A DNA stretch of 61,815 nucleotides from Candidatus Falkowbacteria bacterium (GTDB lineage Bacteria > Patescibacteriota > Patescibacteriia > Patescibacteriales > UBA12465). A program made the position numbers and the translations under genes. The notes beneath the pieces were generated by a model that was not told where the DNA came from, searched no databases, and saw nothing but the letters and a program-made list of their open reading frames with translations. Of this stretch, positions 10,904 through 47,989 are shown one piece after another (positions within the stretch are counted from its first letter, which is position 1; every line of letters begins with the position of its first letter). The stretch lies in contig JAPLVZ010000008.1 of assembly GCA_026396805.1 (NCBI GenBank), positions 1 to 61,815 on the forward strand. Direction: 5' to 3'.

Positions 10904-11008
10904 ATCGGTGCGGTATTCTAAAGATAGTCCGAACGCATTTCGCCGCCTGCGGCGGCGAGGGAGTCCCCCCGCGAAAAATTCCTGAAAATGCGGCGGAGCC
11001 GCACCGAT
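10904..11008. ncRNA. GC-rich structured element upstream of adk (unclassified)
   Basis: A 10-bp closing stem ATCGGTGCGG/CCGCACCGAT encloses a CGCCGCC-TGC-GGCGGCG hairpin. It is far more GC-rich than the surrounding intergenic DNA. Confidence 0.35.
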
Positions 11009-11041
11009 GACAATTTTAAGTTTTTCTTTGGCGGCAGATTC

Positions 11042-11596: not shown

Positions 11597-11651
11597 ACGA
11601 ATTATTATAGCAAATTAATTTTCGACTTTCTCCAACTTGTGATTTCCTTAA

Positions 11652-11727
11652 TGGTGCCCCGTGCAGGATTCGAACCTGCGACCGTCTCGTTAAGAGCGAG
11701 CCGCTCTACCAACTGAGCTAACGAGGC
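11652..11727 (-). tRNA. tRNA-Lys (anticodon CTT), CCA encoded
   Basis: The reverse complement folds as a cloverleaf: GCCTCGT/ACGGGGC acceptor, anticodon loop CTCTTAA, T-loop TTCGAAT. Confidence 0.9.
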
Positions 11728-11732
11728 ATTTA

Positions 11733-12416: not shown

Positions 12417-12481
12417 ATCAACGTGTTATATAACAATTGTACCAAAAGGTAAAAGAACTGTAAACGGTGGCAGGAAACTGT

Positions 12482-12554
12482 GGCGGGGGCGGGACTCGAA
12501 CCCGCGACCTTAGCGTTATGAGTGCTACGCTCTAACCAGCTGAGCTACCCAGCC
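12482..12554 (-). tRNA. tRNA-Met (anticodon CAT, elongator-like), no CCA
   Basis: The cloverleaf starts GGCTGGGTAGCTCAGCTGGTTAGAGC, with anticodon loop CTCATAA. It has a U4-C69 mismatch and an A31-C39 mismatch. A lysidine-type Ile identity cannot be excluded from sequence alone. Confidence 0.75.
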
Positions 12555-12592
12555 ATTTTTTTCGGGTGCTACTCCGTGCGCCAACCGGCGGA

Positions 12593-12606
12593 TGAGCTAC
12601 CCAGCC
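12593..12606 (-). repeat. Duplicated 14-nt 5' fragment of the tRNA-Met gene
   Basis: TGAGCTACCCAGCC at 12593-12606 is identical to 12541-12554. Confidence 0.8.
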
Positions 12607-12632
12607 AAATAACCGGGCTGACCCGGTTAATG

Positions 12633-12706
12633 TGCGCCCGGCAGGATTTGAACCTGCAACCTCATGGTCCGAAGCCAAGCACTCTATCCAGTTGAGCTAC
12701 GAGCGC
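12633..12706 (-). tRNA. tRNA-Arg (anticodon TCG), no CCA
   Basis: Cloverleaf with GCGCTCG/CGGGCGC acceptor, anticodon loop CTTCGGA, T-loop TTCAAAT. Confidence 0.88.
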
Positions 12707-19969: not shown

Positions 19970-20697
19970 AGATTTTTAATCGCTAATTTAAATAAAGTCT
20001 GAAAAGTTTTTATAATTTTTTGGTTTCTTATCTTTAGACCGATTGGATGCTGTTTGTCTAGAGTAAAAATCGCGATATTTTCATCACCGACGGCAATCAA
20101 GGCTGGAGCTTCAAAATTTTTATCATTTATCAAATACTGTTTTCTTAAAATTTTTTTGTCATTTTCTAATTCTTTAATTGAGCTCTCTGTTTTATTGGTT
20201 ATCAGCTCAATATAATTTCCGTTTTTCACTCTTTCTTGGGAAAACTTTTTAGAATAAGGGCCGAAAACATTCCAGTCGCCGATTTCATAAATATATTTAT
20301 TCTTACCGGCAGTTGAGATCATTAAAGAATTTACCGCCTGAGCACCATCATAGAAAGTAACTTCTGGACGATCGATCTGATGTTTTATTTCATTAAGCTG
20401 TTTTTCAATATTTATAACAATTTCCTTTTTCGTTTTTAAATTTTCTTCCTCTTGGTCTATTAGGTCTCTCAAATTCTTCGGCGGCTCGGCGGTAAAATTT
20501 TTTATCCGGCCATTAAAAGAAGTGCCGACTAACCCTTTTTTTATTAAAGATTCCAGGGAAGAGTATGTAGTCGGGCGTGGCAATTCATTTTTTTTGGCAA
20601 TTTTTGAGGCGCTTAATTCAGGAAATTGCAATAAAGTTAAATAAATTTTTGCTTCTTTATCCGATAAGCCAATTTTTTGTAAATCATTAATTAGCAT
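19966..20697 (-). CDS. TrmB-family HTH transcriptional regulator
   Basis: 243 aa with an N-terminal LQKIGLSDKEAKIYLTLLQ...SASKIAK winged helix. Its stop overlaps the trmD start by 4 nt. Confidence 0.7.
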   Translation of the reverse strand: MLINDLQKIGLSDKEAKIYLTLLQFPELSASKIAKKNELPRPTTYSSLESLIKKGLVGTSFNGRIKNFTAEPPKNLRDLIDQEEENLKTKKEIVINIEKQLNEIKHQIDRPEVTFYDGAQAVNSLMISTAGKNKYIYEIGDWNVFGPYSKKFSQERVKNGNYIELITNKTESSIKELENDKKILRKQYLINDKNFEAPALIAVGDENIAIFTLDKQHPIGLKIRNQKIIKTFQTLFKLAIKNL

Positions 20698-20808
20698 AAT
20701 ATATTGTTAGTGTTGTCAGATATGTCCGACAATTTAAACATATCAAGGAAATAGGATATAGTCAAGCCAGTTTTTTAACAAATAAATAATTTTAAAATAG
20801 GAGGTATT

Positions 20809-21081
20809 ATGAAAAAAATTGTGGTAACTTATTTCGAGGATGACGGAACGTTATTGGGCAAGACGATTGAACATAAGATAGCCGATTTTGCCAATCAAAA
20901 TAACTTAAGTCCGTCTGATTTTAAAATCTGTCATATCGGGACACGTCAAGAAAAGAAGGATAATACTGATATTCTGATAAGAGAGGTTTCGGTTTTATAT
21001 TATGCGGACGAGGAACTGGCCAGGAAAGTTTCGGCTCAGTATTATACAGAAAGAGAATTTAAGGAATTATATGGAGGGTGA
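20809..21081 (+). CDS. Hypothetical protein
   Basis: 90 aa with a strong AGGAGG 6 nt upstream of the ATG and a terminator downstream. Confidence 0.55.
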   Translation: MKKIVVTYFEDDGTLLGKTIEHKIADFANQNNLSPSDFKICHIGTRQEKKDNTDILIREVSVLYYADEELARKVSAQYYTEREFKELYGG

Positions 21082-24597: not shown

Positions 24598-25098
24598 TTA
24601 ACGATAAAGCAGGAATTTCTTGTTGGCGCTCAAATCGGTAAAGTCATCGGCTTCTTCTATGAGTTTAGATGAGCAGGTTTTTTTGAAAGCCATTATTTCC
24701 ACGAGACAGCCTTTGTTATTCTGCAGATAAGATACCAGCGGGAGATAATCGCCGTCGCCGGAAACTAGAACGATAACATCAAGTTTATCGGCCAGCTTGA
24801 TGGCGTCGATGGCGATACCCACATCCCAATCGCCCTTTTTCGCGCCGCCGGCGAAGATTTGAAGGTCTTTCATCTTGACTTCAAAACCTTGCTGATCAAG
24901 CGCCTCGATAAAGGGGGATTCCTCCTTATTTTCCGTGCGGATAGCATAAGCGGTGGCCCGGATCAGTTTTCGGTCGGCCACTGCCTTAGCTAAAATCTCT
25001 CTGAAATTAACTTTCCGATTATATAAATTCTTCGCCGAATGATACATATTGGAAACATCCACCAGAATTCCGACTCGTTGTTCCGTATGTTTTATCAT
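24598..25098 (-). CDS. NYN/LabA-like domain protein (putative RNase)
   Basis: 166 aa with the VDVSN...GDWDVGIAIDA...VSGDGDY acidic motif pattern. Confidence 0.75.
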   Translation of the reverse strand: MIKHTEQRVGILVDVSNMYHSAKNLYNRKVNFREILAKAVADRKLIRATAYAIRTENKEESPFIEALDQQGFEVKMKDLQIFAGGAKKGDWDVGIAIDAIKLADKLDVIVLVSGDGDYLPLVSYLQNNKGCLVEIMAFKKTCSSKLIEEADDFTDLSANKKFLLYR

Positions 25099-25104
25099 AA
25101 ATGA

Positions 25105-25479
25105 TTATTTTACGTCTTCAATAACTTCTTCTTTTATCTCGTCGCCTTCTTCGGTCTCGATATATTTTTTTTCTTTCTTCTTTTCTTCTTCCTCTTCTTC
25201 GATGAGCTTTTGGGAGATTCTAAGTTTCAGTCTTTCGGATAATTCCTTAAATTGTTCGGAATTTTCTTTCTGTAAGTATTTAAGCAATTTGCGTCTTTCG
25301 CCGACCTTTTTTAAGAGGCCGCGGCGGGAAGAGAAATCGTGCTTATGTTTCTTCAAGTGCTCGGTCAGCTCCTTAATCTCTTCGGTGAGGATTGCGATTT
25401 GGACCTGGGAAGAACCGGTATCCGTGTCATGGACGCGGAATTTCTTGATGATTTTTTCTTTGTTTTTTTTGTCTAACAT
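25105..25479 (-). CDS. rpsO: 30S ribosomal protein S15 with an acidic C-terminal extension
   Basis: 124 aa with TGSSQVQIA...[17 protein letters not shown], then an E/K-rich tail. Confidence 0.93.
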
Positions 25480-25554
25480 AGTTTATTCGCTCCTATCCGA
25501 GAAGCGGTTAATCGGTCCGCATCCAAGAAAGAGTACCTTAATTATTTAAATCAC

Positions 25555-25815
25555 TTATTTAAAAGCGTTGATTTTTTTCATCAATTTTGATTTTTTGCGG
25601 GCGGCGGTGTTTTTTTTGATTAAGCCCTTCCTAGCGGCTTTATCAATCGCCTTAATGGTTTTTTTATAATCTTCTTTTATATTCTTATCTCCGGCCTTAA
25701 TCTGTTTTAAGCTGGTTTTTACCAAATCTTTCAATTTTCCGATAATTTTTTTATTTTGGGCGCTTCTTTTAACGGCTTTACGCAGTTCTTTGGCGGCCGA
25801 TTTCTTGTTTGGCAT
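25555..25815 (-). CDS. rpsT: 30S ribosomal protein S20
   Basis: 86 aa, highly basic, with MPNKKSAAKELRK...N and the usual helical repeat pattern. Confidence 0.88.
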   Translation of the reverse strand: MPNKKSAAKELRKAVKRSAQNKKIIGKLKDLVKTSLKQIKAGDKNIKEDYKKTIKAIDKAARKGLIKKNTAARKKSKLMKKINAFK

Positions 25816-25960
25816 ACTGAATTTTTAAATTATTAATTAATTAATATAGAGAAATACTAACATAATAGTAAACAAAAATCAAGTCCGCCCAATCTTTGGG
25901 AAAATTTTGTCTATTAGTATATAATATAGGTATGCTTAAGATACGTTTAAGAGTATAGAT

Positions 25961-26761
25961 ATGTTCAAAATCCGTAACTCAAATAAGAAAAAACTCCTAG
26001 TCTTAGCGATTATTTTAGTGATTATCGCCGGGGGTTATTTAAATCGTGCCTATTCTCATATTTATGGGGTGCTCGGCGCCGCTGATTTAAGGCCGGCAAA
26101 CGGGCAGGGAACTTATTTAATAGGCGGAACTAATTTAATAGAGGGCGTTAACCAGATAAATAATATGGCGACCACCAGTCTTATCTATGTTGCTTTAGGG
26201 GACAGTTTGACCGCCGGAGTCGGTACTGATAGTTATCAGGAAATATTACCTTACCTCTTGGCTGAAAAATTTGCCGCCGGCGAAAAGACGATTGTTCTAA
26301 AGAATCATTCTGTTCCCGGAGCGGAAACCGCGGACGTAGTTACTGATCTCCTCTCCACGGCCATTAATGATAATCCGGATATTGTCACGCTTTTAATCGG
26401 TGTTAATGACATCCATAATAAAGTTTCGGCCGCGAAGTTCACGGAGAACTATGAGGAGATTTTAAATCGTCTCCAGCGGGGGACAAGGGCGAAGATTTAT
26501 GTTATTAATCTTCCGTTCCTGGGTTCTGATAAATTGATGCTTCCGCCATACCAGTCTTTATTCGACGCGCGGACTCGGGAATTTAATGAAATCATTAAAG
26601 GCCTGGCCGATAAATATTCCGTTCAATATATAGATTTATATACGCCGACCGTTGAACTATTTAAACGTTCCGGCGACCATTATTCAAAAGATTTATTTCA
26701 TCCTTCCGCCGGCGGTTATAAACTTTGGGCGGACATAATTTATGATCGTATCAATAACTAA
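25961..26761 (+). CDS. SGNH/GDSL hydrolase with an N-terminal membrane anchor
   Basis: 266 aa with block I ALGDSLTAG, block III GVND and block V DLFHPS. Confidence 0.85.
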   Translation: MFKIRNSNKKKLLVLAIILVIIAGGYLNRAYSHIYGVLGAADLRPANGQGTYLIGGTNLIEGVNQINNMATTSLIYVALGDSLTAGVGTDSYQEILPYLLAEKFAAGEKTIVLKNHSVPGAETADVVTDLLSTAINDNPDIVTLLIGVNDIHNKVSAAKFTENYEEILNRLQRGTRAKIYVINLPFLGSDKLMLPPYQSLFDARTREFNEIIKGLADKYSVQYIDLYTPTVELFKRSGDHYSKDLFHPSAGGYKLWADIIYDRINN

Positions 26762-27845
26762 TCCAATCCAGGCCACTTGGATTTTTTCGCTTCTGTTTGG
26801 CGCGGTTCTGCTCATTTCCGCGCGGCCGCGAAAAATTACCGACTGGTTTCCGGCGTCTTTGACAACGGAGCTAAAGGGAGTGGCGATACTTATGATCGTT
26901 CTTTCCCATATCGGATATTTTTTGGTTTCCGATACTCGCTTCCTTTGGCCGCTCTCAATTATGGCCGGCGTCGGCGTCAATTTATTTTTGTTTTTATCCG
27001 GTTTCGGTTTGACGGCCAGCGGTCTGCAGAAAAATCTTAGCGTTGGCCAATTTTATAAGCGCCGTCTCTTAAAATTATTCACGCCGTTCTGGTTGGCTCT
27101 AGTGATTTTCTTGGCGGCCGATTTTTTTATTCTCGGGAAGAGTTATTCCTTTACTTTCCTTTGGCAAGGGATACTGGGGATTTTTACGCACGCGAATTTG
27201 TATACCGACTTTAATTCGCCGCTCTGGTATTTTACCTTGATCCTTTTATATTATTTGTTGTTTCCGTTAGTATTTTTTAAACGTTTCCCTTGGCTCTCGG
27301 CAATTATTCTCTTTCTTGCCGGTAATTGGTTGATTAAACTGGAGCCGACTTTTTTTGACAATGTTTTGTATCTTTATAAAATTCATATTATGGCGTTTCC
27401 GCTCGGCGTTTTGGCGGCTTGGGCGGTTACGAAATTACCGAGCGCGGCCTGGCTGGAAAAATTGTCTAAAGGCTGGCGGGCGATTGGATATTATTTGGTT
27501 TTACTAAGTTTATTGGCGGTTTTTGTCTATGCGAATATTAATTCCGGTATCGGCGGCAGCGCGTCTAAAGAACAATGGATGAGCGTGATAGCTGTTTTAA
27601 CAATCGCCCTGGTATTTATGATGAAGAAATTAGAGTTTAGATTATTTTCTCTCTTCGGATTATATTCCTATGAGATTTATCTGTGGCATTGGCCACTTAT
27701 GTATCGCTATAATATTTTTTACGGCTTCATGCCGCCTTGGCTGGCGACGATTTTGTATTTAGGGTTGTTTATCGGGGTGGGATGGGGTGCGCAGAAGATT
27801 ATGGGGTTGTTAAATAAGTCGAGGTTAATGATGGTAAAAAAATAA
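26742..27845 (+). CDS. Acyltransferase family 3 (integral membrane O-acyltransferase)
   Basis: 367 aa and polytopic, with the early G..ILMIVLSH motif. It overlaps the SGNH gene by 20 nt. Confidence 0.8.
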   Translation: MIVSITNPIQATWIFSLLFGAVLLISARPRKITDWFPASLTTELKGVAILMIVLSHIGYFLVSDTRFLWPLSIMAGVGVNLFLFLSGFGLTASGLQKNLSVGQFYKRRLLKLFTPFWLALVIFLAADFFILGKSYSFTFLWQGILGIFTHANLYTDFNSPLWYFTLILLYYLLFPLVFFKRFPWLSAIILFLAGNWLIKLEPTFFDNVLYLYKIHIMAFPLGVLAAWAVTKLPSAAWLEKLSKGWRAIGYYLVLLSLLAVFVYANINSGIGGSASKEQWMSVIAVLTIALVFMMKKLEFRLFSLFGLYSYEIYLWHWPLMYRYNIFYGFMPPWLATILYLGLFIGVGWGAQKIMGLLNKSRLMMVKK

Positions 27846-27858
27846 TTCTCAAAAAAAT

Positions 27859-27885
27859 CAGGAGCCTAGTCAGCTCCTGTTTTTA
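27859..27885 (+). terminator. Intrinsic terminator
   Basis: CAGGAGC-(7 nt)-GCTCCTG followed by TTTTT. Confidence 0.7.
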
Positions 27886-27966
27886 TTTACGATGTCGGGA
27901 TTAAAATAGTAATTTGTTAGAATTACAATATAAAATAAATAAATTAAATATTTTTTACGTAAAATT

Positions 27967-29907
27967 CTATCTAACTATACTAAAATCATAATTCTTATTT
28001 CCAAAGAATGAATATTTTTTTGATATTAGTTTTTGTTTCTCCTTATTATTTAAACCGCTAAGATAAAGTTTGCCGCTGTAAGACGGCGGTAGTTTTAGCC
28101 CGTCAATTGTTGCTAGCCCGTCGAGGAGAAGATCACCATTAAATGACTGAGGTAATTTCAACCCTCTGGCCGATTTAAGACCACGGAGGTTTAAGCTGCC
28201 AACAACTTCCGGTAATTGAAGATTTTCAGCTGATTCCAAATCCATTAGATTAAGATCGCCGGTGACTATTCTTGGTAACCGTAAATTATTGGCATCTTTT
28301 AAGAAATATAAATACAGGTTGCCATTAATGACTTTCGGTAAAACTAAGCCATCAGCTGAAGTTAGTTCATTAAAAGATAAGTCTCCTTTCATGGTTTCGG
28401 AGAATTTTAAACCTTTAGCCGTTGTGCATTCTACAAACAAATCACCATAATGATATTTATTTCCGCAATTTAGAGTTTCTCCTAGGGTAACGTTTAAACT
28501 CTTTGGACTAGTAAGGCTGATATCATCTTTAGAATAACCGAGGGCGAAGGAAATGTCCTCTTTAATATCCCGGCTATCTATTAACTCTATTATTCTTGGG
28601 TCATCTTCAAATCCAAACCCCTGTATTTTACTGTCTATTTCATACAAAAATTTAATATCCTCTTTAGATAATGTTTCTCCTTTTTTAATTTTAGTTTCAA
28701 CTTCAGTCAGACGCTTCATATCGGCAGATTTCTTTTCATATTCCTTACTGTCAGGAAATTTAGCCATTTTTTCTTTAACGATATCATTAATGTAAGGATC
28801 CATATTTTGGCTCGGAGCAATGCCGCGAACTTCGGCAATTTTATCCTCCTCCATTCTAATAGCGACGCGCGGAATAACAGCTTCGCCGTCTTCATTATTA
28901 GAATAATAAACATGGAAATCTCCACCTTGAAGTTGAGTCTTGGCAGTATCGGCATCGGCGGTACACCACTCCAAGGGATGGCCATCCAGCGATTTTACCA
29001 ATTCATCCGGTTCAGATCCTTGTTTATAGATAACCCATTTTCCGCGCGTTTCCTTTAAGCCGTCAGTAGAATATTCAGGAATTTCTTTTAAAAACTGGGC
29101 ATAAATCTTTGAGAAATTTTCTGAATTTAAAAGTTCTTTAAATTCTACAGCATTTAACCTTTTGCTTTTATTTTCAATTTTTTCTTTTTCTTCCTTGGTA
29201 TTTTTAAGATTGTTTTCCGCTTTGTTGGATATCGACCCGATAGTCAGAGCCAAGGCCCTGGGGTTTAGCGGTGGAAATGAGGCAACCGTATCTTTAGTTC
29301 TTCTTTTAAATTGAACGAGTTCTGCTTTAGTGTCCGGATCTTCTTTTTTTTCAAGCTTCCCCATACTAAGTACGGATTTAAAAGTCCAATATTTCGCCCA
29401 CATGGGATATTGGGCATTAGCAGATGATAAATAATTTATCCACTTGTCCAAACTTCTTTTTTGGTTATTTATTATTTCGTTGGTCTTTTTTTGTCTAAAT
29501 TCATCGGTAATTTCAACCGTCCCATGTCCCAGTTCTCTAGCAATTTTCTGCTCCAACAAAAAAGTCGCCTCGGGGATATCCTCAGCTTTAATTACATTTT
29601 CTTTGTAATAGAATTCTTTAATTCTATCTATAACCCTGGGGTCGTCTTGATGCCCTAAATGAGTTTTTTCTATTACCTCTAACCAATTAGCAATCTTATC
29701 AGCCGGTTTTTGAGATAATTGTTCTTTTTTTTCTTTGTCTTTTTCAGGTTCAACTTTATCGGCTGGCTTCTGCAACAATATTTCCTTTTCTTTTTTATCT
29801 TTATAGTCTTCTTTTATTTTTCTTCTTTCCGCTTCATACTCAACCGGCTGAGACGTGTGAAGTTTAGTATCTTTTTGACTTAAAAATTGTTCACCAAAAT
29901 TTTTCAT
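27967..29907 (-). CDS. Large hypothetical protein with a C-terminal array of ~22-23-aa leucine-rich-like repeats
   Basis: 646 aa. The N-terminus has a duplicated QKPADK segment. The C-terminal repeats follow a GDL.L..L.SA.GL.LP pattern. The region is AT-rich. Confidence 0.6.
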   Translation of the reverse strand: MKNFGEQFLSQKDTKLHTSQPVEYEAERRKIKEDYKDKKEKEILLQKPADKVEPEKDKEKKEQLSQKPADKIANWLEVIEKTHLGHQDDPRVIDRIKEFYYKENVIKAEDIPEATFLLEQKIARELGHGTVEITDEFRQKKTNEIINNQKRSLDKWINYLSSANAQYPMWAKYWTFKSVLSMGKLEKKEDPDTKAELVQFKRRTKDTVASFPPLNPRALALTIGSISNKAENNLKNTKEEKEKIENKSKRLNAVEFKELLNSENFSKIYAQFLKEIPEYSTDGLKETRGKWVIYKQGSEPDELVKSLDGHPLEWCTADADTAKTQLQGGDFHVYYSNNEDGEAVIPRVAIRMEEDKIAEVRGIAPSQNMDPYINDIVKEKMAKFPDSKEYEKKSADMKRLTEVETKIKKGETLSKEDIKFLYEIDSKIQGFGFEDDPRIIELIDSRDIKEDISFALGYSKDDISLTSPKSLNVTLGETLNCGNKYHYGDLFVECTTAKGLKFSETMKGDLSFNELTSADGLVLPKVINGNLYLYFLKDANNLRLPRIVTGDLNLMDLESAENLQLPEVVGSLNLRGLKSARGLKLPQSFNGDLLLDGLATIDGLKLPPSYSGKLYLSGLNNKEKQKLISKKYSFFGNKNYDFSIVR

Positions 29908-29921
29908 ATTATTTCTTTATG

Positions 29922-29985
29922 TGTCGGGGTGGAGAGATTCGAACTCTCGATCTTCCGATCCCAAACCAGACGCCTTAAACCAACT
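29922..29985 (-). pseudogene. Truncated copy of the tRNA-Pro 3' portion (direct repeat, att-like)
   Basis: 61 of 64 positions are identical to 31186-31249. It lacks the 5' acceptor arm, and its anticodon stem is disrupted. Confidence 0.85.
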
Positions 29986-29988
29986 TAA

Positions 29989-30435
29989 TTAATTTTCTTT
30001 ACTTTTAATCAAATCATCTATTTTATTCAATAAAACCCGAGCGTCGTTCATGGCTTGTTTTAATTCCGCCTCAGAAATGCTAGCCAGAGTACCATAATCG
30101 AACCTATTTCTTTTCTGTCTCATTTTTTGAATTCTTTGAAATTCGTTGCTCATATCCCCGTTCAATAATTCACCGGCGGCGTTAATGGTTATATAATGAT
30201 ATCCTTCCGAACTTTTCTTTGCCCGGTATCCGGATAACCATAAAACAATCTCACAGCCCATCCGGATAGAATCGTAAAGGTTAGTATAAATAATATCCTC
30301 ATCCCCCGTCCCTGATAAATTTTTAACGGCAAAATTAAAAATCCGACGCGCTTTTTTTCGTCTATTTTCAATATCCGCTAAAGAAACAGTGAATTTTTCT
30401 ATTTGGTCGTTATTTGATAATTTTTGTGAATTCAT
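29989..30435 (-). CDS. HEPN-domain protein (putative toxin of a HEPN/MNT pair)
   Basis: 148 aa, helical, with the C-terminal motif RQKRNRFDYG (an R-x-x-x-x-Y/H type HEPN signature). It overlaps the upstream MNT gene by 26 nt. Confidence 0.6.
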   Translation of the reverse strand: MNSQKLSNNDQIEKFTVSLADIENRRKKARRIFNFAVKNLSGTGDEDIIYTNLYDSIRMGCEIVLWLSGYRAKKSSEGYHYITINAAGELLNGDMSNEFQRIQKMRQKRNRFDYGTLASISEAELKQAMNDARVLLNKIDDLIKSKEN

Positions 30436-30988
30436 AAGAATCGCCTTTTAAAGAGATTAAGGGGGAAGAAAAAATATTGATAAAAAAACTGTCGTTTTCT
30501 TTGATTTTTTTGATAACTTCCGCGCGACTGAAAATATGATAATTTATTTCTCGATTGATTTCTCCCTCAATTTTACTGATTTCATTAATCAAGATATTTT
30601 GATCAATTTTGCCGACAAGCATCAGATCGACATCGCTATTACCATTCTCTTTGTTTTTAGCGATTGAACCGAAAAGAAAAGCGCCGTCTAAATCATTGAA
30701 TTTATCAACCAGATTTCTTAATTTAGCTTCCAAACCGACGGTTTTTGAAATGATACTTTTTAATTCCGCGAAGAGATGATAATTTTTGTTTAATCTGAAA
30801 AATCGCATATTGCCCTTGCGTTCGTCCTGTAAAATTCCTTGGTCGACCAATTCGTCTAAATGTCTTTGGTAATGGCTCGGTTCTTTATTTAAGCTTTTGG
30901 CGATTTCTCTAAGATAATAGTCTTTTTCGGGATCGCTAAAAAGAAGTTTAAGAATCTCGCCTTTGCCGTTTTTAAAAAAATCTAACAT
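30410..30988 (-). CDS. wHTH + minimal nucleotidyltransferase (MNT) protein (putative antitoxin/regulator)
   Basis: 192 aa with an N-terminal ArsR-like winged helix (YLREIAKSLNKEPSHYQRHLDELVDQG) and the NTase motif GS-x10-SDVDL. Confidence 0.7.
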   Translation of the reverse strand: MLDFFKNGKGEILKLLFSDPEKDYYLREIAKSLNKEPSHYQRHLDELVDQGILQDERKGNMRFFRLNKNYHLFAELKSIISKTVGLEAKLRNLVDKFNDLDGAFLFGSIAKNKENGNSDVDLMLVGKIDQNILINEISKIEGEINREINYHIFSRAEVIKKIKENDSFFINIFSSPLISLKGDSYEFTKIIK

Positions 30989-31048
30989 ATTTATTTAAGT
31001 TTTAGGTATATGATTTATAGTATTGTTTTTGTATACGATTGTATATAA

Positions 31049-31119: not shown

Positions 31120-31187
31120 TATATCTTTTTATATTTTTTGCCTTGTTTTCGCAAAAAAAGGACAATTTAATGTCCGTCTTTCATTTG

Positions 31188-31262
31188 TCGGGGTGGAGAG
31201 ATTCGAACTCTCGATCTTCTGGTCCCAAACCAGACGCCTTAGACCAACTGGGCCACACCCCG
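31188..31262 (-). tRNA. tRNA-Pro (anticodon TGG), no CCA
   Basis: Cloverleaf with CGGGGTG/CACCCCG acceptor, anticodon loop TTTGGGA, T-loop TTCGAAT. Confidence 0.9.
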
Positions 31263-31328
31263 GATATATACCTAAAAAAATAAACCCAACAATATAAATA
31301 TAGCCTGGGCTTATCTTTTGTCTATACG

Positions 31329-31400
31329 TGCCCCGGGTCAGAATTGAACTGACGACACAAGGATTTTCAGTCCTTTGCTCTACCACTGAGCTACCGAGGC
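31329..31400 (-). tRNA. tRNA-Phe (anticodon GAA), no CCA
   Basis: Cloverleaf with GCCTCGG/CCGGGGC acceptor, anticodon loop CTGAAAA. Confidence 0.9.
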
Positions 31401-31429
31401 ATGAAAATTTTATTGTTAAAACTATCCTG

Positions 31430-31502
31430 TTGCGGGGGTCGGACTCGAACCGACGACCTCTAGGTTATGGGCCTAGCGAGCTGCCAACTGCTCTACCCCG
31501 CT
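31430..31502 (-). tRNA. Initiator-type tRNA-Met (anticodon CAT), no CCA
   Basis: Strong block similarity to E. coli tRNA-fMet as I recall it (xGCGGGG..GAGCAG..AGCTCG..AGGTCGTCGGTTC..CCCCGCAA). It has a 1:72 mismatch (A-A) and the anticodon loop CCCATAA. Confidence 0.8.
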
Positions 31503-31565
31503 ATGATATTTGTTTGGCTTTACTGAACATGGCTTACTTGGGCTTTTCAATTAATCTCGGGCGAT

Positions 31566-31642
31566 TGGTGGGCAATGGAGGATTCGAACCTCCGACCTCA
31601 ACATTATCAGTGTTGCGCTCTAACCAACTGAGCTAATTGCCC
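31566..31642 (-). tRNA. tRNA-Ile (anticodon GAT), CCA encoded
   Basis: Cloverleaf with GGGCAAT/ATTGCCC acceptor, anticodon loop CTGATAA. Confidence 0.92.
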
Positions 31643-42409: not shown

Positions 42410-43156
42410 TTAATAACCCGAAATTACACACACTCCAGTGTTCATTGCTTCTTGAAGAGGATTATCAACCACCTTACCGTTTATTGTGTATGTCGTTTTC
42501 TGTTCTCCACTTCCCGAATTTGCATTTACGCTTGTTCCCGCTGATTCGGCTGTAGCCACATCTTTGTAATATTGAGCCGCTACCATTCTCTCGCCCTCCG
42601 AATATTTACACTCCATTTTTCCACCGTTTGGCATTTGCTCAACATAATCACATTTACCGCTGACAATTCCCAAAACTTCTTTTTCCAAAATTTCCCCTGT
42701 TATTGGATGTTTAAAAGTGATTTTATATTTTGTGCAGGAATTCAACTTATCCGCAAAAACTATTTCCGGATTTTGTGACTGGGCTTCTTTTACGGGTTGT
42801 TCTGATGGTTTAACGGTTTCTATCGGCTTACTTGTGGGCGATTGATTTAAAACTTCATTGGATACTTTTGGCACTTCTTTTGATTTGGAAAATGTTTTAC
42901 TGGCAAAATAAATTCCGCCACCAATAGCTACCGCTCCAATTAAAGAGACTATAATAATTTTCCATATCTGAACTGGTGCTTTATTTGAGAAATTTGAAAT
43001 CGGCTGACCTTGAGCAGAATAATTTATTGAATTAAAAGCTTCCTCAATATCAATATTCTGCCAGCCATTAGCTAGAAGTGATTGTTTAATTTGCTCATTA
43101 TTTACTCCTTGTTGAGTTTGTTGCTTGATATAATCAAGCAGTTGTTGATTTACCAT
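42410..43156 (-). CDS. Hypothetical single-pass membrane protein
   Basis: 248 aa with an N-terminal soluble segment of about 60 aa, one TM helix (IWKIIIVSLIGAVAIGGGIYFA), and an extracytoplasmic domain containing Cys residues. Confidence 0.55.
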   Translation of the reverse strand: MVNQQLLDYIKQQTQQGVNNEQIKQSLLANGWQNIDIEEAFNSINYSAQGQPISNFSNKAPVQIWKIIIVSLIGAVAIGGGIYFASKTFSKSKEVPKVSNEVLNQSPTSKPIETVKPSEQPVKEAQSQNPEIVFADKLNSCTKYKITFKHPITGEILEKEVLGIVSGKCDYVEQMPNGGKMECKYSEGERMVAAQYYKDVATAESAGTSVNANSGSGEQKTTYTINGKVVDNPLQEAMNTGVCVISGY

Positions 43157-43311: not shown

Positions 43312-43599
43312 CTATCTCTTTTTAAATTTTACTTGATTTGTTTCTTCCAGGATTTCAATAGTGGCTTTGGCCGACGGATTATCAGTGTTTTTTAATATTA
43401 AATTGTTTTGGTATTTTTTTTGAAGCGGGGACAAAAATTCGTCGCCCCAAGAAGGCGAAAAAGTTGAAACATCCGAAAAATCAATAATAACTTCTTCGCT
43501 ATTGTCTTTTGGAAGTTGAAGCGATATGGCCGACAGAGCTTCCTTCCCGAATTGTCGGGAAGTCAATAAATTACCAAATTTTTTTAATTCAATAGTCAT
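43312..43599 (-). CDS. STAS-like small protein (DUF4325-type)
   Basis: 95 aa with the pattern G....SR..G..A......L........I.IDF..V...S.S..DEF, as I recall it for STAS-like DUF4325 proteins. It lies 4 nt downstream of the GHKL gene. Confidence 0.5.
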   Translation of the reverse strand: MTIELKKFGNLLTSRQFGKEALSAISLQLPKDNSEEVIIDFSDVSTFSPSWGDEFLSPLQKKYQNNLILKNTDNPSAKATIEILEETNQVKFKKR

Positions 43600-43603
43600 A
43601 ATT

Positions 43604-44350
43604 TTAAAAATTAATTAAAGCCAGGCACCCCCTGAAGGAAATAGCGGTTTGCTCGATTTTTAAATTAATCGTTTTATTATCTAGAATAGTAAAAGCATTT
43701 CCGGATTGGAAATATAATTTTAGAGGTATGTCTTTTTTTATATCAACTAATACTTTCTTAACATATTTAAGCCCATTGCCTCTATTTTCCGGTGCTCGTC
43801 CGGAAATTTTTTTGGTAAAGGCGGTGAAAAGAGCCTCACTATCGTTTTTCAATTCCGGGCAAACTCTTTTTAGAGTAGTTAAAATACCTTGACCCCGATC
43901 AGCTAAAACGATTTGTCGCTTGTGTAAATCATAAGCAAAAAATATACCTCTAATATCCGGCCAGGAACCAAGATTATGATCAAAGGAATTATTGCCGATT
44001 TCTCCGACAATCGAGCTGATTAGAGAAAAATCTTTTTCTAATTCCGGAATTTTTTGCATTAAATTTTCCAAATGGCTAAGTCTGGCCTGAAAAGTATAAC
44101 TGTCTATACAAAAAAATTGGCCGTCCGGCTCAATCGCTATAGATTTTAAAATCCAATTTTCGGCTAAAGAAAAAATATTATTAGCTATTAATTGAATATC
44201 GAAAAATTTATAATAACGGTAACCAGCGGGACTAATTCGGATAGCTTTAAGTTTACCGGACTGATCCCAACGTCTTAATGTTTGCATGGAAACATTAAGC
44301 ATTTTTGCCGCCTCGTTGATTTTTATTAGTTTATTATTATCATTCAGCAT
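43604..44350 (-). CDS. MerR-type HTH fused to a GHKL (HATPase_c-like, anti-sigma/RsbW-like) ATPase
   Basis: HTH KINEAAKMLNVSMQTLRRWDQSGKL. ATPase N-box EIGNNSFDH, G1 DRGQGI, G2 GRAPENRGNGLKY. No His-phosphotransfer domain. The track ORF starts at 44380. I prefer the ATG at 44350 (MLNDNN). Confidence 0.65.
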   Translation of the reverse strand: MLNDNNKLIKINEAAKMLNVSMQTLRRWDQSGKLKAIRISPAGYRYYKFFDIQLIANNIFSLAENWILKSIAIEPDGQFFCIDSYTFQARLSHLENLMQKIPELEKDFSLISSIVGEIGNNSFDHNLGSWPDIRGIFFAYDLHKRQIVLADRGQGILTTLKRVCPELKNDSEALFTAFTKKISGRAPENRGNGLKYVKKVLVDIKKDIPLKLYFQSGNAFTILDNKTINLKIEQTAISFRGCLALINF

Positions 44351-44408
44351 AATATATACAAATATTATAAAATTATACAAACCTATACATTTTTATATCA
44401 ATATATAC

Positions 44409-44436
44409 ATTATAATACAAAGATAAAAAATGTCAA
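44409..44436 (-). promoter_or_regulatory. Sigma70-type promoter for the MerR-GHKL/STAS operon
   Basis: On the minus strand, TTGACA (44436-44431), a 16-nt spacer, then TATAAT (44414-44409). TATACA repeats lie immediately downstream. Confidence 0.5.
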
Positions 44437-44577
44437 TAAGCCAATCTTAGAAACAAAAAGAGACAATGAAAATGAATAAAATAAAGAGATAGGCGAAACA
44501 TCCCAAAAGAACAAAAAGGGTATTTATTATAGCAAATATTAAGAATAATGTCAATTATTCTATCATAAGTCAAAAGA

Positions 44578-44606
44578 TTGACAGATTTTATTTCATAGAG
44601 TATACT
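44578..44606 (+). promoter_or_regulatory. Sigma70-type promoter for the XRE-Panacea/MazF operon
   Basis: TTGACA (44578-44583), a 17-nt spacer, then TATACT (44601-44606). The ATG is at 44636. Confidence 0.55.
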
Positions 44607-44635
44607 ATAAATAGTTAATATTTTATATCAATTTT

Positions 44636-45451
44636 ATGATTAACAAACAATCTTTGGGCAATAAAATCAAGGCTTTAAGAGAGTTTGATGACATGAGCCA
44701 GGAAGATTTGGCTCAAAAAATCGGCTTATCAAGAGTCGCTATATCACAAATCGAACAAGGCAATAGAAGCGTTGATTTTTTAGAGCTGGCCAAAATAGCC
44801 GAAGTTTTTAAATTGAAAACTGATTATTTTTTAATTGAAGATGAATTGCCAAATATCGAATTAGCTAAGAATCAAAAAAAAGTTAATAATTTTGATCCAA
44901 AAAAATTAAAAAATGTTATTTTATATATTCTAGAAAAATGCGCGGGAAAACCGAACGTCGGAGAAACAGTCTTGTATAAATTATTATATTTTATTGATTT
45001 TGATAATTTTGAAATTAACAACCAATCAATCTCGGGGTTAGATTACATTCATTTACAATACGGCCCAGCGCCAGCAGCCCTACAATATTCGCCGGTTATA
45101 GAAGCGATGAAGGCCAACCAAGAACTTAAAATTATTATTCAAGATTATTTCGGTTTAAAAATAAAACGCTATATTAATTTAATTGGGCATAATATTGACT
45201 CTTTATGCCCCAAAGAAACAAAAGTTATCGATGACGTCATAGGATCTCTTTCTAATATGTCTGCTTCGCAGATAGAAGAATATTCGCATGGCGACGCTCC
45301 CTGGCAATTAACCGGCGATAAGGAAGCCATTCCGTATAACCTTGTTTTTGAACGTCAAACACCTTACGCCAAAAGAAGTCCTGATGATTTAAGATGTTTC
45401 AAAATGACAGGAGCTAAAGACATATTAAATCAATTAGGCTCTATTTTCTAA
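44636..45451 (+). CDS. XRE-family HTH fused to a DUF4065/Panacea (SocA-like) antitoxin domain
   Basis: 271 aa with the HTH MSQEDLAQKIGLSRVAISQIEQGNR, then the block VLYKLLYFIDFDNF...LQYGPAP that I recognise as DUF4065-like. Confidence 0.65.
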   Translation: MINKQSLGNKIKALREFDDMSQEDLAQKIGLSRVAISQIEQGNRSVDFLELAKIAEVFKLKTDYFLIEDELPNIELAKNQKKVNNFDPKKLKNVILYILEKCAGKPNVGETVLYKLLYFIDFDNFEINNQSISGLDYIHLQYGPAPAALQYSPVIEAMKANQELKIIIQDYFGLKIKRYINLIGHNIDSLCPKETKVIDDVIGSLSNMSASQIEEYSHGDAPWQLTGDKEAIPYNLVFERQTPYAKRSPDDLRCFKMTGAKDILNQLGSIF

Positions 45452-45478
45452 AACAGAATACGATCATTACGAAAATCT

Positions 45479-45832
45479 ATGATGACGAAAGGCGAGATTA
45501 GCTTCGGCGATGTTGTTTGGGCTGAATTTGATCCTAGTGTTGGACACAAATATCAAAGTAAAAGACCGGCAATTGTCGTTGAGTCAGATGAACAATTAAA
45601 AAAGACAAATTTGATTACTATAATTCCGCTCACTTCGCAAAAAGATAATCGTATGTCCGATGATATTTTAGTGGAAGCTTGCAAGGAAAATAATCTAATG
45701 TCTGATTCGCTAGCTAAAGTGTATTGTATAACGTCCTTTGATTACGCAAGATTTGAGAAAGTAGTCGGGAGAGTAAATAAAGAAATTTTGTTAAAAATTA
45801 AGAATTATTTTAAAAAACATTTTGATATATAA
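45479..45832 (+). CDS. PemK/MazF-family toxin (putative endoribonuclease)
   Basis: 117 aa with GDVVWAEFDPSVGHKYQSKRPAIVV and IIPLTS blocks. Confidence 0.8.
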   Translation: MMTKGEISFGDVVWAEFDPSVGHKYQSKRPAIVVESDEQLKKTNLITIIPLTSQKDNRMSDDILVEACKENNLMSDSLAKVYCITSFDYARFEKVVGRVNKEILLKIKNYFKKHFDI

Positions 45833-45863
45833 TTATTTTTGAAAAGTTAATAATATTAGTTTT

Positions 45864-47720
45864 ATGAAACTCATTAAAGAAGAAAAAATTTCCAAAAAAA
45901 TAACCAAACAATATTCTTACGATTTTATGCTTGCCGAAGATGGTTTGTATCTAATAGAAATAATCGCGAGCGCTAAAAGCTGGTGGCAGAATTTTAAAAC
46001 GAGCCGCTCTTTTTTTAAAGATGATGACATATTTTTATATTTGGATAATCAAGAATTAACCACTTCACAATACACAAAAAAGGATGCGCGGTCGGCTTGG
46101 AACGGAAACGAATTGTGTGGTTTAGAAAAAACCGTTATTGTTGCTACTAGTTTAAGTAAAGGAAAACATGCAATTGATTTAAAGCCCGACCAAAGCCCCT
46201 ATCTAAAAAGTATTATTGTTTCTAAGGTAGAAGAAAATGATAAAATAATATATTTTCCGACTGTCAATAATCCAGCTCAAAAAAGCGAGGGACGTCCTTG
46301 GCTAAGTTATATTATTCTGGACTTATTCATCACTAAATTATCTATTTTAGCTTATGCCGATAAGAATGGTCGAGATGATGACGACCTGAAATTATTGATT
46401 AATGGAAAGATACAGATAAATGAGAATACAAAATCTCATCGCGATTGGTATTGGTGCGGTAAAGCGCTAAAGGGGAAAGAAAAAAGTTTTAATCAAGATA
46501 TTAACTTAAAAACTAAACAATTTAACCTTGATTTATATTCCGATGAAACTCCGCGTCTGTCGAAAATAGAAATAGGGATAAAGCCAGCCGAAACAAAAAG
46601 AATCCCCACCGTCGACGATCCGCTTTGGACTGGAGATTTTAAGGATGATGCCGACGAAATGATATTGGCTCGGGCGGTATTCGGTGAAGGGAGGAGCCTC
46701 CCGGACGAAGGAAAAGTTGCAATCGCCTGGTCAATAAGAAATCGTGTCGAAGATGATAGATGGGCCGATAATTATCATGATGTAATTTTGCAAAAAAATC
46801 AGTTCAGCGCTTTTAAAATTGATGATCCAAATTGGGAATATGTAAAGAACCCTTTTTATGAGATTAATCCAGAACAATTAACAGCCTGGGGAAAGTGCTA
46901 CAAAATTGCCGGCTTAGTTATATCAGGAGAAATAAAAGACCCAACGGGCGGTGTAAACCATTATTTTTCTGATTATATTGATTATCCAAGTTGGACTAAA
47001 AGCAAGAACGCTAAATTTATAATGAAAATAGGCAATACTTTATTTTATAATTTAAAAAAAGAAAGTAATGGCGGTTTTATTAGAATAAAATATTTGTTAC
47101 TTGCCTTACTTATTATTTTGATTGGCCTCGGCGTGTATTTGGCAATTTTGTGGCAATTTGGAGGCCGAGAAACAGAACAAATTTGTGAGGCAAAAGAAGG
47201 AAGATCAATAGAAGACGTCAATGGTTCCATTGAAGAGACTGCTGGCGGATTGTACGGATATTATCATCATGTTTATATAAATCCCAAAAAATCGGAAGTA
47301 GAGAGAATTTTTTTTGATCAGGAGGGGCGGTTCTCTGAACTTAAACGTTTGACTAATGACGGTCACTATAAATATGACCTAAAATTATTTTCGTCTGATA
47401 GTTTTCGTTTTGGATACTTTCAGGATTTACATAAGGGCGATGAAGATTTCGATGAAAATAACGATAAACAAAGAGAGGAATATTATAAAAATTACACGTC
47501 TTTAATAATAAGTCCGGGATATGGCTCAACGCCTATTGAAGTTTATCGGGGCAATGATCATACCTCTTCATGGGAATGGGAAGATATTAATCATGTAAAA
47601 GTATATAATAATTGCGGAACCTGTTGCCGCTATTACTATTTAATAAATATTAATACTCAGAAAATTGAAGAAGAAGGGCATCTTGAGGTGGAAGAAACCG
47701 CTTGTATGCAAATTCGCTAA
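45864..47720 (+). CDS. Multidomain protein with a SleB/CwlJ-like cell wall hydrolase domain, one TM helix and a C-terminal domain
   Basis: 618 aa. It has two related N-terminal modules, then the hydrolase_2-like block ILARAVFGEGRSLPDEGKVAIAWSIRNRV...QKNQFSAF. A TM helix (YLLLALLIILIGLGVYLAILW) and a tail of about 190 aa ending in a CGTCC motif follow. Confidence 0.6.
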   Translation: MKLIKEEKISKKITKQYSYDFMLAEDGLYLIEIIASAKSWWQNFKTSRSFFKDDDIFLYLDNQELTTSQYTKKDARSAWNGNELCGLEKTVIVATSLSKGKHAIDLKPDQSPYLKSIIVSKVEENDKIIYFPTVNNPAQKSEGRPWLSYIILDLFITKLSILAYADKNGRDDDDLKLLINGKIQINENTKSHRDWYWCGKALKGKEKSFNQDINLKTKQFNLDLYSDETPRLSKIEIGIKPAETKRIPTVDDPLWTGDFKDDADEMILARAVFGEGRSLPDEGKVAIAWSIRNRVEDDRWADNYHDVILQKNQFSAFKIDDPNWEYVKNPFYEINPEQLTAWGKCYKIAGLVISGEIKDPTGGVNHYFSDYIDYPSWTKSKNAKFIMKIGNTLFYNLKKESNGGFIRIKYLLLALLIILIGLGVYLAILWQFGGRETEQICEAKEGRSIEDVNGSIEETAGGLYGYYHHVYINPKKSEVERIFFDQEGRFSELKRLTNDGHYKYDLKLFSSDSFRFGYFQDLHKGDEDFDENNDKQREEYYKNYTSLIISPGYGSTPIEVYRGNDHTSSWEWEDINHVKVYNNCGTCCRYYYLININTQKIEEEGHLEVEETACMQIR

Positions 47721-47722
47721 CT

Positions 47723-47750
47723 AAAAACTCTAACATTTGTTAGAGTTTTT
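47723..47750 (+). terminator. Intrinsic terminator
   Basis: An 11-bp stem AAAACTCTAAC/GTTAGAGTTTT with loop ATTT, followed by a T-rich tail. Confidence 0.75.
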
Positions 47751-47876
47751 AGTTTAATAGAGTTTAGGCTAATAATATTAACGGAATAGGAATTAGTGTT
47801 TTTTGTCAGAGAATATTTTTAATTTAAATTTATTTCTAATCTATCCGCTCCATCCGTTAATTGCGAATCCCAAACA

Positions 47877-47907: not shown

Positions 47908-47915
47908 TTTGTTTG

Positions 47916-47989
47916 TGGACCCTATCGGATTCGAACCGATGACCCCCTGCTTGCAAAGCAGGTGCTCTAGCCAGCTGAGCTAAGGGCCC
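47916..47989 (-). tRNA. tRNA-Ala (anticodon TGC), no CCA
   Basis: Cloverleaf with GGGCCCT/AGGGTCC acceptor, including the G3-U70 Ala identity pair, and anticodon loop TTTGCAA. Confidence 0.92.

Follow-up and report, generated by a model that had tools for sequence, protein, structure and literature searches.

A MerR-type kinase-like protein and its STAS-like partner in Patescibacteria: a candidate autoregulated relative of CapK/CapS and VapK/VapS

Patescibacteria, the candidate phyla radiation (CPR), make up a large share of bacterial diversity and are mostly uncultured, and to our knowledge almost nothing is known about gene regulation in these organisms. A stretch of 61,815 nucleotides (nt) from a Candidatus Falkowbacteria bacterium (contig JAPLVZ010000008.1, hereafter ‘the window’) raises this question at a single locus: what is done by a gene that fuses a DNA-binding domain to an ATP-binding domain, and by the small STAS-like protein encoded directly behind it? 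Both genes lie on the minus strand. Gene A (43604..44350; start ATG at 44350, stop TAA at 43604-43606) encodes a 248-residue protein composed of a helix-turn-helix (HTH) and a GHKL domain, and gene B (43312..43599), located downstream after a 4-nt gap, encodes a 95-residue single-domain STAS-like (DUF4325) protein. An initial annotation made from the letters alone had described two minus-strand genes 4 nt apart, and both open reading frames are indeed present, as are all of the peptides it quoted (KINEAAKMLNVSMQTLRRWDQSGKL, EIGNNSFDH, DRGQGI and GRAPENRGNGLKY). In an alignment of homologues, ATG 44350 is the start position shared by 37 of 37 orthologues; the alternative start TTG 44380, given by a mechanical open reading frame call, was rejected as the alignment favors ATG 44350. 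The same annotation had read the pair as partner-switching-like, with a kinase-like protein carrying its own HTH and a STAS-like DUF4325 partner, a reading which our comparisons support and sharpen. We propose, at somewhat better than an even chance, that the pair is an autoregulated kinase-repressor with its STAS substrate or partner, native to Patescibacteria and related to CapK/CapS and VapK/VapS.

Operator repeats and the residue predicted to read them

The pair lies behind a predicted promoter, P1 (44409..44436, minus strand), in which the –35 box TTGACA (44436-44431) and the –10 box TATAAT (44414-44409) are separated by a 16-nt spacer; with 12/12 matches to the consensus, it is the consensus promoter that the initial annotation had named. 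P1 is conserved among close relatives, and the spacer between the two boxes is 16–18 nt at orthologous loci. The regions upstream of 81 A orthologues have in common an 11-nt motif, TG[T/C]ATAGNTTT, with TGTATAG present in 36 and TGCATAG in 35 of the 81 regions, compared to 2.4 and 0.7 in shuffled sequences. The reverse complements of these heptamers are found in only 3 and 2 regions respectively, and the repeat motif is therefore directional. At least one copy is found in 75 of 81 loci and two to five copies in 65, with spacings that peak at 10, 20–21, 31 and 42–43 nt, corresponding to whole helical turns. The window contains four copies on the minus strand, in the same layout as locus L001: O1 (ATGTATATATTG, 44399..44410; position weight matrix score 11.8), which overlaps the –10 box and transcription start and lies at about –7 to the predicted start; O2 (ATGTATAGGTTT, 44379..44390), a full consensus copy scoring 16.0 of a maximum 17.6 and separated by 20 nt from O1 and by 10 nt from O3; O3 (TTGTATAATTTT, 44369..44380; score 12.3); and O4 (TTGTATATATTA, 44350..44361), the weakest copy (score 10.3), which abuts the start codon.

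These four copies at 44350-44410 are the sole phased sites in the 61.8-kb window, and in 697 kb of loci the clusters of at least two strong sites were at an A promoter in 58 of 58 cases. No second operator cluster was found in the window, relaxed thresholds included, nor in the 697 kb of flanks. Relative to the predicted transcription start, repeats are positioned at about –44, –34/–24, –7/–1 and +10/+20, and thus overlap or bracket the –35 box, spacer, –10 box and start site of the A promoter, which argues for autorepression. Judging from these positions, A most likely represses the A–B operon.

The sequence of the repeats is tied to the sequence of the protein. The recognition helix of A (VS-x-[Q23]-TLRRW) begins with residue 23, which is Q or M in 30 of 30 loci with TGTATAG and D in 26 of 26 loci with TGCATAG (mutual information 1.0 bit). 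On a neighbor-joining tree built from A residues 60-248 only, leaving out the HTH, residue 23 and base 3 of the repeat switch at least eight times and always together. Rarer combinations follow the same rule, with N paired to TGGGTAG, S to TGAGTAG, and A or T to mixed repeats. A perfect covariation of residue 23 with repeat base 3, over at least eight independent switches, therefore indicates that A reads its own promoter. One orthologue (L059, on a 1.58-Mb contig of a record labelled Saprospiraceae) has Gly at residue 23 and no recognizable upstream repeats, and is either an acquisition outside the CPR or the product of a mislabelled bin.

The domain predicted to do this reading spans residues 8-56 of A (44183..44329, minus strand) and is a MerR/BldC-type winged HTH, with a recognition-helix stretch S21-M-Q23-T-L-R-R27-W28 and a wing at approximately G43-Y-R45-Y-Y47. 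Pfam MerR matches A at E 1.1e-11, covering residues 10-47, and MerR_1 at 8.4e-8, in keeping with the MerR-type HTH fused to a Bergerat-fold ATPase that the initial annotation had described; NCBIfam HTH_BldC matches at 3.3e-6, below the family cut-off. The BldC–DNA complexes 6ama and 6amk are the best PDB sequence matches of the A HTH, and a PDB sequence search with the whole of A returned only MerR/BldC HTHs. All 81 A orthologues keep R26, W28 and R45, and 80 of them keep R27.

BldC is a MerR-like protein without a coiled coil that binds direct repeats head-to-tail, and its Arg30 reads a pyrimidine-G step (PMC5859096). Gln23 of A (codon 44282..44284, minus strand), which the residue/repeat covariation marks as specificity-determining, aligns with BldC Lys26, and Arg27 of A aligns with BldC Arg30, these being the two residues of BldC that contact bases in the major groove. 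The A repeat starts with an invariant TG, and by analogy to BldC Arg30, Arg27 of A probably reads this TG step. The likeness between the two proteins extends to a MerR-type winged HTH with neither a coiled-coil dimerization helix nor an effector domain behind it, to head-to-tail direct repeats rather than a palindrome (for A, by comparative genomics only), and to recognition of a pyrimidine-G step with an AT-rich tract a few bases away. Unlike A, however, BldC stands alone as a protein of 68 residues, lacking both an enzymatic domain and a STAS partner, and the repeats themselves differ, being AATTNNNN(C) for BldC and TGYATAGNTTT for A. Classical MerR activators differ further from A, as they bind a palindrome within a 19–20 bp spacer and carry a C-terminal effector domain, whereas A has direct repeats, a 16–18 nt spacer and a C-terminal GHKL domain. 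Taken together, a sequence-specific, BldC-like binding of A to its own promoter appears well supported by comparative evidence.

We also searched metagenomes for exact matches to two repeat copies 21 nt apart. Among the 120 loci returned, an A gene is directly downstream in 56 and an orphan B-like gene in two. The 64 matches without A comprise contig ends and tandem repeats, phage or eukaryote-like sequences, and a few genes of mixed kinds, and were indistinguishable from chance except for the two orphan STAS genes. These orphans (88 and 96 aa) lie right behind the same operator pair with no adjacent A (L102, 7014-7280; L183, 1729-2019), the one in L183 between AbiE-like genes and a 250-aa open reading frame; their position suggests that A can act in trans on extra STAS genes. 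The exact operator-pair pattern was also observed in 40 viral contigs of IMG/VR (L214-L253), compared to fewer than 5 expected by a rough, composition-based chance estimate. Many of these contigs are high in GC and recur as identical phage sequences, and they have neither an A gene nor a common downstream gene; we judged these matches unrelated and probably other phased repeats.

A GHKL domain, a STAS-like partner and their characterized relatives

The C-terminal half of A, residues 106-248 (43607..44035, minus strand), is a GHKL (Bergerat-fold) ATP-binding domain. Its motifs comprise an N-box (E117-IGN-N121-SFD-H125), a G1 box (D151-R-G-Q-G155) and a G2 box (G184-RAPENR-G191-N-G193-LK), within which E117, N121, H125, D151, G153, G155, R185, E188, R190, G191, G193 and L194 are invariant in 81 of 81 A orthologues. 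An AlphaFold2 model of A (predicted local distance difference test score, pLDDT, 87) shows an alpha/beta sandwich and no long coiled coil, and the best PDB matches of the full-length model in Foldseek are Hsp90/TRAP1 N-domains (E 2.5e-5), as are all of the matches listed. Template modelling (TM) scores for these matches are low because the query has two domains. The Foldseek result supports a GHKL fold for the model, and does not tell a kinase from an ATPase. Relatives of A that lack the HTH reach Pfam HATPase_c and HATPase_c_2 at about 5e-4, and homology to CapK, detailed below, provides a fourth line of evidence.

Between the HTH and the GHKL domain lies a helical pre-GHKL segment (residues 57-105; 44036..44182, minus strand) with an invariant W66 and C81 and a D83xxxF87xxxL91 pattern, which is also retained in the HTH-less relatives; the interval of ~49 residues is modelled by AlphaFold2 as two helices. 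As a side observation, phrog_3364, a 304-residue PHROG profile, matches the GHKL domain at E 1.4e-10 (A residues 94-234, window 43607-44068), from which it would follow that phages carry CapK/VapK-like kinases; a 293-aa gene beside a DUF4325 gene in a Francisella prophage (PMC7924643) may exemplify a phage-borne kinase of this kind.

The initial annotation knew of no experimentally assigned function for this architecture, a statement that is now outdated, as the homologous CapK/CapS and VapK/VapS/VapC, which differ in architecture and context, were characterized in 2026 by Chambers et al. in EMBO J (PMC13373217). CapK (HTH-STAS-GHKL) is switched on by single-stranded DNA (ssDNA) and phosphorylates Ser54 of CapS, a repressor composed of a STAS domain and a winged HTH (wHTH); this phosphorylation breaks the CapS dimer and de-represses the adjacent immune operon, and the N-terminal HTH of CapK is dispensable for signalling (PMC13373217). 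VapK/VapS/VapC is a related toxin-antitoxin system (PMC13373217). Using CapK and CapS sequences from the source data of that study, BLASTP aligned A residues 105-239 to CapK residues 202-361 with 28% identity (E 8e-6), and profile-profile comparison of the A GHKL domain with 26 CapK homologues gave E-values of 1.5e-7 to 2.7e-7 (probability 93–94%). A is closer to CapK than to SpoIIAB (E 0.013), and N121 of A, invariant in 81/81, is equivalent to the active-site N218 of CapK.

The A–B pair resembles CapK/CapS in having two adjacent genes, kinase then STAS, in its nearly identical GHKL motifs (E-L/I-x-G/N-N-x-x-D-H and D-S/R-G-x-G-I-x-T-T-L-K-R), in a STAS partner with an invariant Ser at the start of helix alpha2, and in binding to and autoregulation of its own promoter, here predicted from comparative genomics. 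The differences are also marked. CapK has 368 residues arranged as HTH(Z-alpha-like)-STAS-GHKL, whereas A has 248 arranged as MerR/BldC-HTH, short helical linker and GHKL, and lacks the internal STAS that forms the ssDNA-binding groove of CapK, the kinase for which activation by ssDNA has been shown. CapS carries a DNA-binding wHTH and binds palindromes as a dimer, whereas B has no DNA-binding domain and it is the kinase A that is predicted to read direct repeats. CapKS systems lie upstream of immune operons in Proteobacteria and others, whereas A–B stands alone among housekeeping genes in Patescibacteria. The best PDB sequence matches of the N-terminal HTH of CapK are Z-alpha (Z-DNA/Z-RNA binding) domains of PKZ, ADAR1 and ZBP1 (E 0.01–1.6). 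The W66/DxxxFxxxL element in the pre-GHKL segment of A is a possible, not established, counterpart of the CapK W68-IDxxxFExxL ssDNA-binding element, a likeness noted by eye and in one non-significant BLAST segment.

B belongs to the DUF4325 type, as the initial annotation had it: Pfam DUF4325 matches at E 2.8e-7 and 30.6 bits, above the gathering cut-off of 23. The AlphaFold2 model of B (pLDDT 96) has the beta-alpha layout of STAS, with RsbS, SpoIIAA (1tid_B, in its SpoIIAB complex), stressosome STAS and an anti-sigma antagonist as best PDB fold matches. TM-scores are about 0.6 overall (0.63 for SpoIIAA 1tid_B, probability 0.90), and E-values are weak (0.07–0.4), as expected for a 95-residue domain. 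In the model B ends directly after the STAS fold, with no extra tail and no DNA-binding domain, and its mean column identity is 68% along all 95 residues. The candidate phospho-acceptor is Ser50 (codon 43450..43452, minus strand), located within F-S-P-S50-W-G-D-E-F at the N-terminal end of helix alpha2. All 78 B sequences compared keep Ser50 and Pro49, position 48 may be S, T or A, and a weak hhalign alignment places Ser50 on Ser54 of CapS. By analogy with CapS, B is probably phosphorylated by A. By comparative evidence, constraint is absolute both on the ATP site of A and on Ser50 of B, and the two genes are inseparable.

The top PDB sequence match of the B profile is ‘Escherichia VapS’ (9z7o, E 0.04), and a VapS fragment in turn matches a protein annotated as DUF4325; a search of plasmids with this fragment, aimed at a VapK gene, recovered only a degraded DUF4325 remnant from Leptotrichia. 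The pair shares with VapK/VapS/VapC a kinase with a small DUF4325-type STAS protein and a conserved Ser/Thr in the same motif region. VapK is, however, STAS-GHKL without an HTH, whereas A has one; VapS has a C-terminal inhibitory tail that B lacks; and VapKSC has a third gene encoding PIN/VapC, of which there is none beside A–B in the window and none that recurs in 80 loci. With SpoIIAB–SpoIIAA and RsbW–RsbV, the pair has in common the ExxxNxxxH N-box and the G1/G2 boxes, the absence of a His-phosphotransfer domain from A, for which the initial annotation had likened A to RsbW/SpoIIAB, and a single-domain STAS partner that has SpoIIAA and RsbS among its best fold matches. It differs from these partner-switching systems in that kinase A bears its own DNA-binding domain, in the marginal A–SpoIIAB similarity, and in that no sigma factor gene lies around the pair in the window, as had also been annotated, or recurs as a neighbor in 80 loci.

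The Hsp90/TRAP1 matches raise the alternative that A is a DNA-bound GHKL ATPase rather than a protein kinase, acting as a clamp or remodeller similar to Hsp90, MutL or MORC, with B as a non-phosphorylated subunit that gates the ATPase. The N-box of A also contains NSxD, a signature of Hsp90 and MutL, and phased multi-copy sites would fit an oligomerizing ATPase. However, A is homologous to CapK, a demonstrated Ser kinase, its relatives match HATPase_c_2 (the RsbW/SpoIIAB family), and its N-box also follows the ExxxNxxxH pattern of SpoIIAB. Further, no transducer or middle domain follows the 140-aa GHKL core of A, and B has an invariant Ser at the phospho-acceptor position. We consider a clamp of this kind decidedly unlikely.

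A resident pair next to an unrelated insertion

A scan of one genome per species found a relative of A in at least 517 genomes, essentially all of them Patescibacteria, at 50–80% identity. In the best 80 loci, used to assess lineage spread, are Falkow-, Moran-, Magasanik-, Yanofsky-, Doudna-, Giovannoni-, Roizman-, Peregrini-, Peri-, Shapiro-, Kerfeld-, Uhr-, Portnoy- and Staskawiczbacteria, as well as WWE3. A few relatives come from records labelled ‘Gammaproteobacteria’, ‘Saprospiraceae’ or ‘Bacillota’, labels given here as recorded and unconfirmed. Of 85 loci, 81 have a B homologue directly downstream of A, most often after a gap of 4 nt, and the four exceptions are three contig ends and one truncated B. 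The initial annotation had left open whether the pair co-occurs in other genomes, and it is conserved. Its flanks are not kept beyond close relatives: 403 neighboring open reading frames from 80 loci fall into 339 clusters, with no conserved third gene or downstream effector adjoining the pair. In a census of 149 flanking open reading frames from 46 loci, most encode housekeeping functions and no family exceeds 4/149, the commonest being MreB, YchF-type GTPases, ABC ATPases, M23/LysM peptidases, Mur ligases and Hsp70. In the window, a 248-aa open reading frame downstream of B (42410-43156, minus strand) has one predicted membrane segment, no Pfam family and a faint Zot-like PHROG match (E 0.003), and is not kept beside the pair in other lineages.

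The initial annotation had placed the pair in an AT-rich, tRNA-adjacent patch, divergent from a toxin-antitoxin module. Each of these features is present: GC content falls to 0.28–0.36 at 42–48 kb versus about 0.44, a tRNA-Ala is found at 47915-47989 (the only Rfam match in 42–48.5 kb), and the divergent module is an HTH-Panacea/MazF pair. In four close relatives (L001, L008, L010 and L011), however, tRNA-Ala lies 70–190 nt upstream of the promoter of the pair, and their homology to the window starts precisely at the edge of the –35 box (44438/44439). The window thus has a 3.4-kb insertion (~44440-47850) between tRNA-Ala and the promoter of the pair that is absent from these relatives. The insertion encodes an antitoxin of the HTH_3+SocA/Panacea type (44636-45451), the toxin MazF (45479-45832) and a membrane-anchored, Hydrolase_2/endolysin-like protein of 618 aa (45864-47720), after which comes a perfect 17-bp hairpin (47719-47754); no att-like direct repeats were found bounding it. 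A different insert of 2.7 kb occupies the same site in L009, and the site is therefore an integration hotspot. The promoter of the toxin-antitoxin genes is predicted at 44578-44606 on the plus strand. Within the insertion there is also a second sigma-70 promoter directed toward A, again a perfect one (TTGACA-17-TATAAT, TG upstream; 44526-44554, minus strand), which partially duplicates the P1 region (repeat 44426-44449 / 44544-44567).

The DNA of the pair is 75–78% identical among close relatives, as opposed to 64–70% for the housekeeping flanks. Given its synteny and its higher identity than the flanks, the pair is resident and strongly constrained. Its low GC content is intrinsic and does not mark a recent transfer, and the low-GC ‘island’ next to it is an unrelated insertion. 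The window has more low-GC patches (0.32–0.38 versus about 0.44) at 11000-12000, 20000-21000, 25000-26000 and 27000-31000, some of which adjoin tRNA clusters (11652-12706; 31187-31642).

These results bear directly on the view, taken by the initial annotation, that the pair is a mobile conflict or defense module, working by abortive infection or in a toxin-antitoxin-like manner, carried in an accessory island. Several observations point that way: the characterized relatives CapKS and VapKSC are tied to immune operons, the GHKL domain recurs in the phage family phrog_3364, AbiE-like genes adjoin one orphan B, and the pair, itself rich in AT, borders on a MazF module at a tRNA gene. However, the pair is syntenic at the conserved tRNA-Ala position in related Falkowbacteria, and the toxin-antitoxin and hydrolase genes arrived as a separate insertion next to DNA that is itself more conserved than its flanks. 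It is shared by at least 517 species at 50–80% identity among housekeeping neighbors, and it has no effector gene with it. Matches to defense-type families among the 149 flanking open reading frames are few and scattered. No PADLOC v2 model matches the ATPase domain of A, B has no match at E up to 1, and the N-terminal HTH of A matches generic models only (mad1, a methyltransferase HTH). A relative of A is present in only 1 of 2.9 million viral contigs, an essential absence. The island and the defense context that had been inferred from the neighborhood are not supported for the pair itself, and we consider a role as mobile defense cargo very improbable.

A proposed switch, its rivals and its significance

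The autoregulated kinase-repressor that we favor would work as follows. The HTH of A would bind head-to-tail on the phased direct repeats of its own promoter and repress the A–B operon. From homology and conservation, the GHKL domain would be an active ATP-binding enzyme of the anti-sigma-factor/CapK kinase type that binds B and phosphorylates its invariant Ser50, where helix alpha2 begins. In the least certain steps of the proposal, the difference between unphosphorylated B bound to the kinase domain and its release as B~P would alter the oligomerization of A on the repeats, so that transcription would respond to the nucleotide state of the kinase or to an activating ligand. The signal could be ssDNA, to which CapK responds, or, on the model of SpoIIAB, the ATP/ADP ratio. 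The logic would be that of CapK/CapS with the DNA-binding output shifted from the STAS protein to the kinase.

A number of observations weigh against this proposal. All evidence on the pair comes from sequence comparison and models. On A itself Pfam HATPase_c is sub-threshold (E 0.21), and while MerR_1 and DUF4325, the other two families in which the initial annotation had expected hits, were found on A and B, the GHKL assignment therefore rests on motifs, the fold model, HTH-less relatives and CapK homology. The profile of the GHKL domain finds no match among PDB sequences at E up to 10, and the best fold matches of A, with their low TM-scores, are Hsp90-type ATPases and not kinases. The input signal may differ from that of CapK, as A lacks the internal STAS that forms the ssDNA groove, and the HTH of CapK is both dispensable and of a different, Z-alpha-like type. 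The alignment of B with CapS is weak (E 0.022, probability 2%), and the register of B against VapS and SpoIIAA is uncertain by one residue. No phosphatase that would reset B~P turned up; none adjoins the pair, and no dedicated PP2C screen of the window or genome was made. Repression rather than activation is deduced from site positions only. Finally, no second target was found in the ~6% of one genome and the 10-kb flanks that were scanned, and a regulator governing only itself makes little sense.

In one alternative the kinase–STAS chemistry is the same but B is the output: B, unphosphorylated or as B~P, would have a third, widely conserved target elsewhere (possibly a sigma factor, RNA polymerase or a cell-wall enzyme), as VapS acts on VapC, while the HTH of A only sets the dosage of the operon. 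Relatives of the pair provide part of the evidence for both readings. An exhaustive search with the C-terminal 192 residues of A against 1.84 billion representatives returned a compact family of 302 clusters (50% identity) at E up to 1e-3. HTH-less members of 190–200 aa keep the pre-GHKL segment and all motifs and have a small DUF4325 gene behind them (L087, L209 and L211); in L087 this partner is 36% identical to B, and in L209 the two genes lie amid cytochrome c and secretin genes, and so belong to a non-CPR genome. In L211 (6001-7568) the HTH-less GHKL gene overlaps a gene encoding a fusion of STAS to an SLT lytic transglycosylase (hhalign STAS E 4.6e-12; Pfam SLT 8.9e-11), and the kinase–STAS pair there may directly control a cell-wall enzyme. 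A few family members carry a MarR-type HTH or a cytidylyltransferase in place of MerR. From the HTH-less GHKL–DUF4325 pairs and the STAS::SLT fusion, it follows that the kinase–STAS pair is a conserved core with swappable outputs that can be placed on either partner.

An output through B would agree with the fusion or coupling of STAS to effectors in relatives (SLT in L211, wHTH in CapS, VapC in VapKSC), with a conservation of B beyond the need of a mere kinase substrate, with the orphan B-like genes behind the same operator in L102 and L183, and with the dispensability of the HTH for signalling in CapK. However, the 80 loci show no conserved third gene beside the pair, B lacks an additional tail or domain such as VapS uses on VapC, and the HTH and operator are under a strong, co-evolving constraint. 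We therefore regard B as the principal output as possible, if rather unlikely, and retain the kinase that is itself the repressor as our preferred reading.

The pair is a stripped-down relative and architectural variant of CapK/CapS and VapK/VapS that is widespread in Patescibacteria. It is among the most conserved non-housekeeping modules traced across Patescibacteria, with 50–80% identity over class-level lineages, and recognition-helix residue 23 versus repeat base 3 provides the first concrete cis-element and specificity code for it. The kinase–STAS principle of CapK/CapS is thereby extended to a portable switch with an output domain on either partner, carried in some cases by the STAS protein (a wHTH, a PIN inhibitor or a lytic transglycosylase) and in others by the kinase (a MerR or MarR HTH), and it is not confined to phage defense. 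Should the STAS partner indeed let the kinase switch its own DNA binding on and off, this would be a regulatory design not yet described experimentally. A more far-reaching idea, which we rate as unlikely, is that Patescibacteria share the pair as a lineage-wide master switch for stress, a ‘one-and-a-half-component’ system in which the kinase itself is the repressor, sensing ssDNA/DNA damage via the conserved W66 element, which would descend from CapK-like ancestors, or the energy state, with a regulon beyond its own operon that includes the orphan STAS genes. If true, the pair would do the work of SOS-type control in these reduced genomes.

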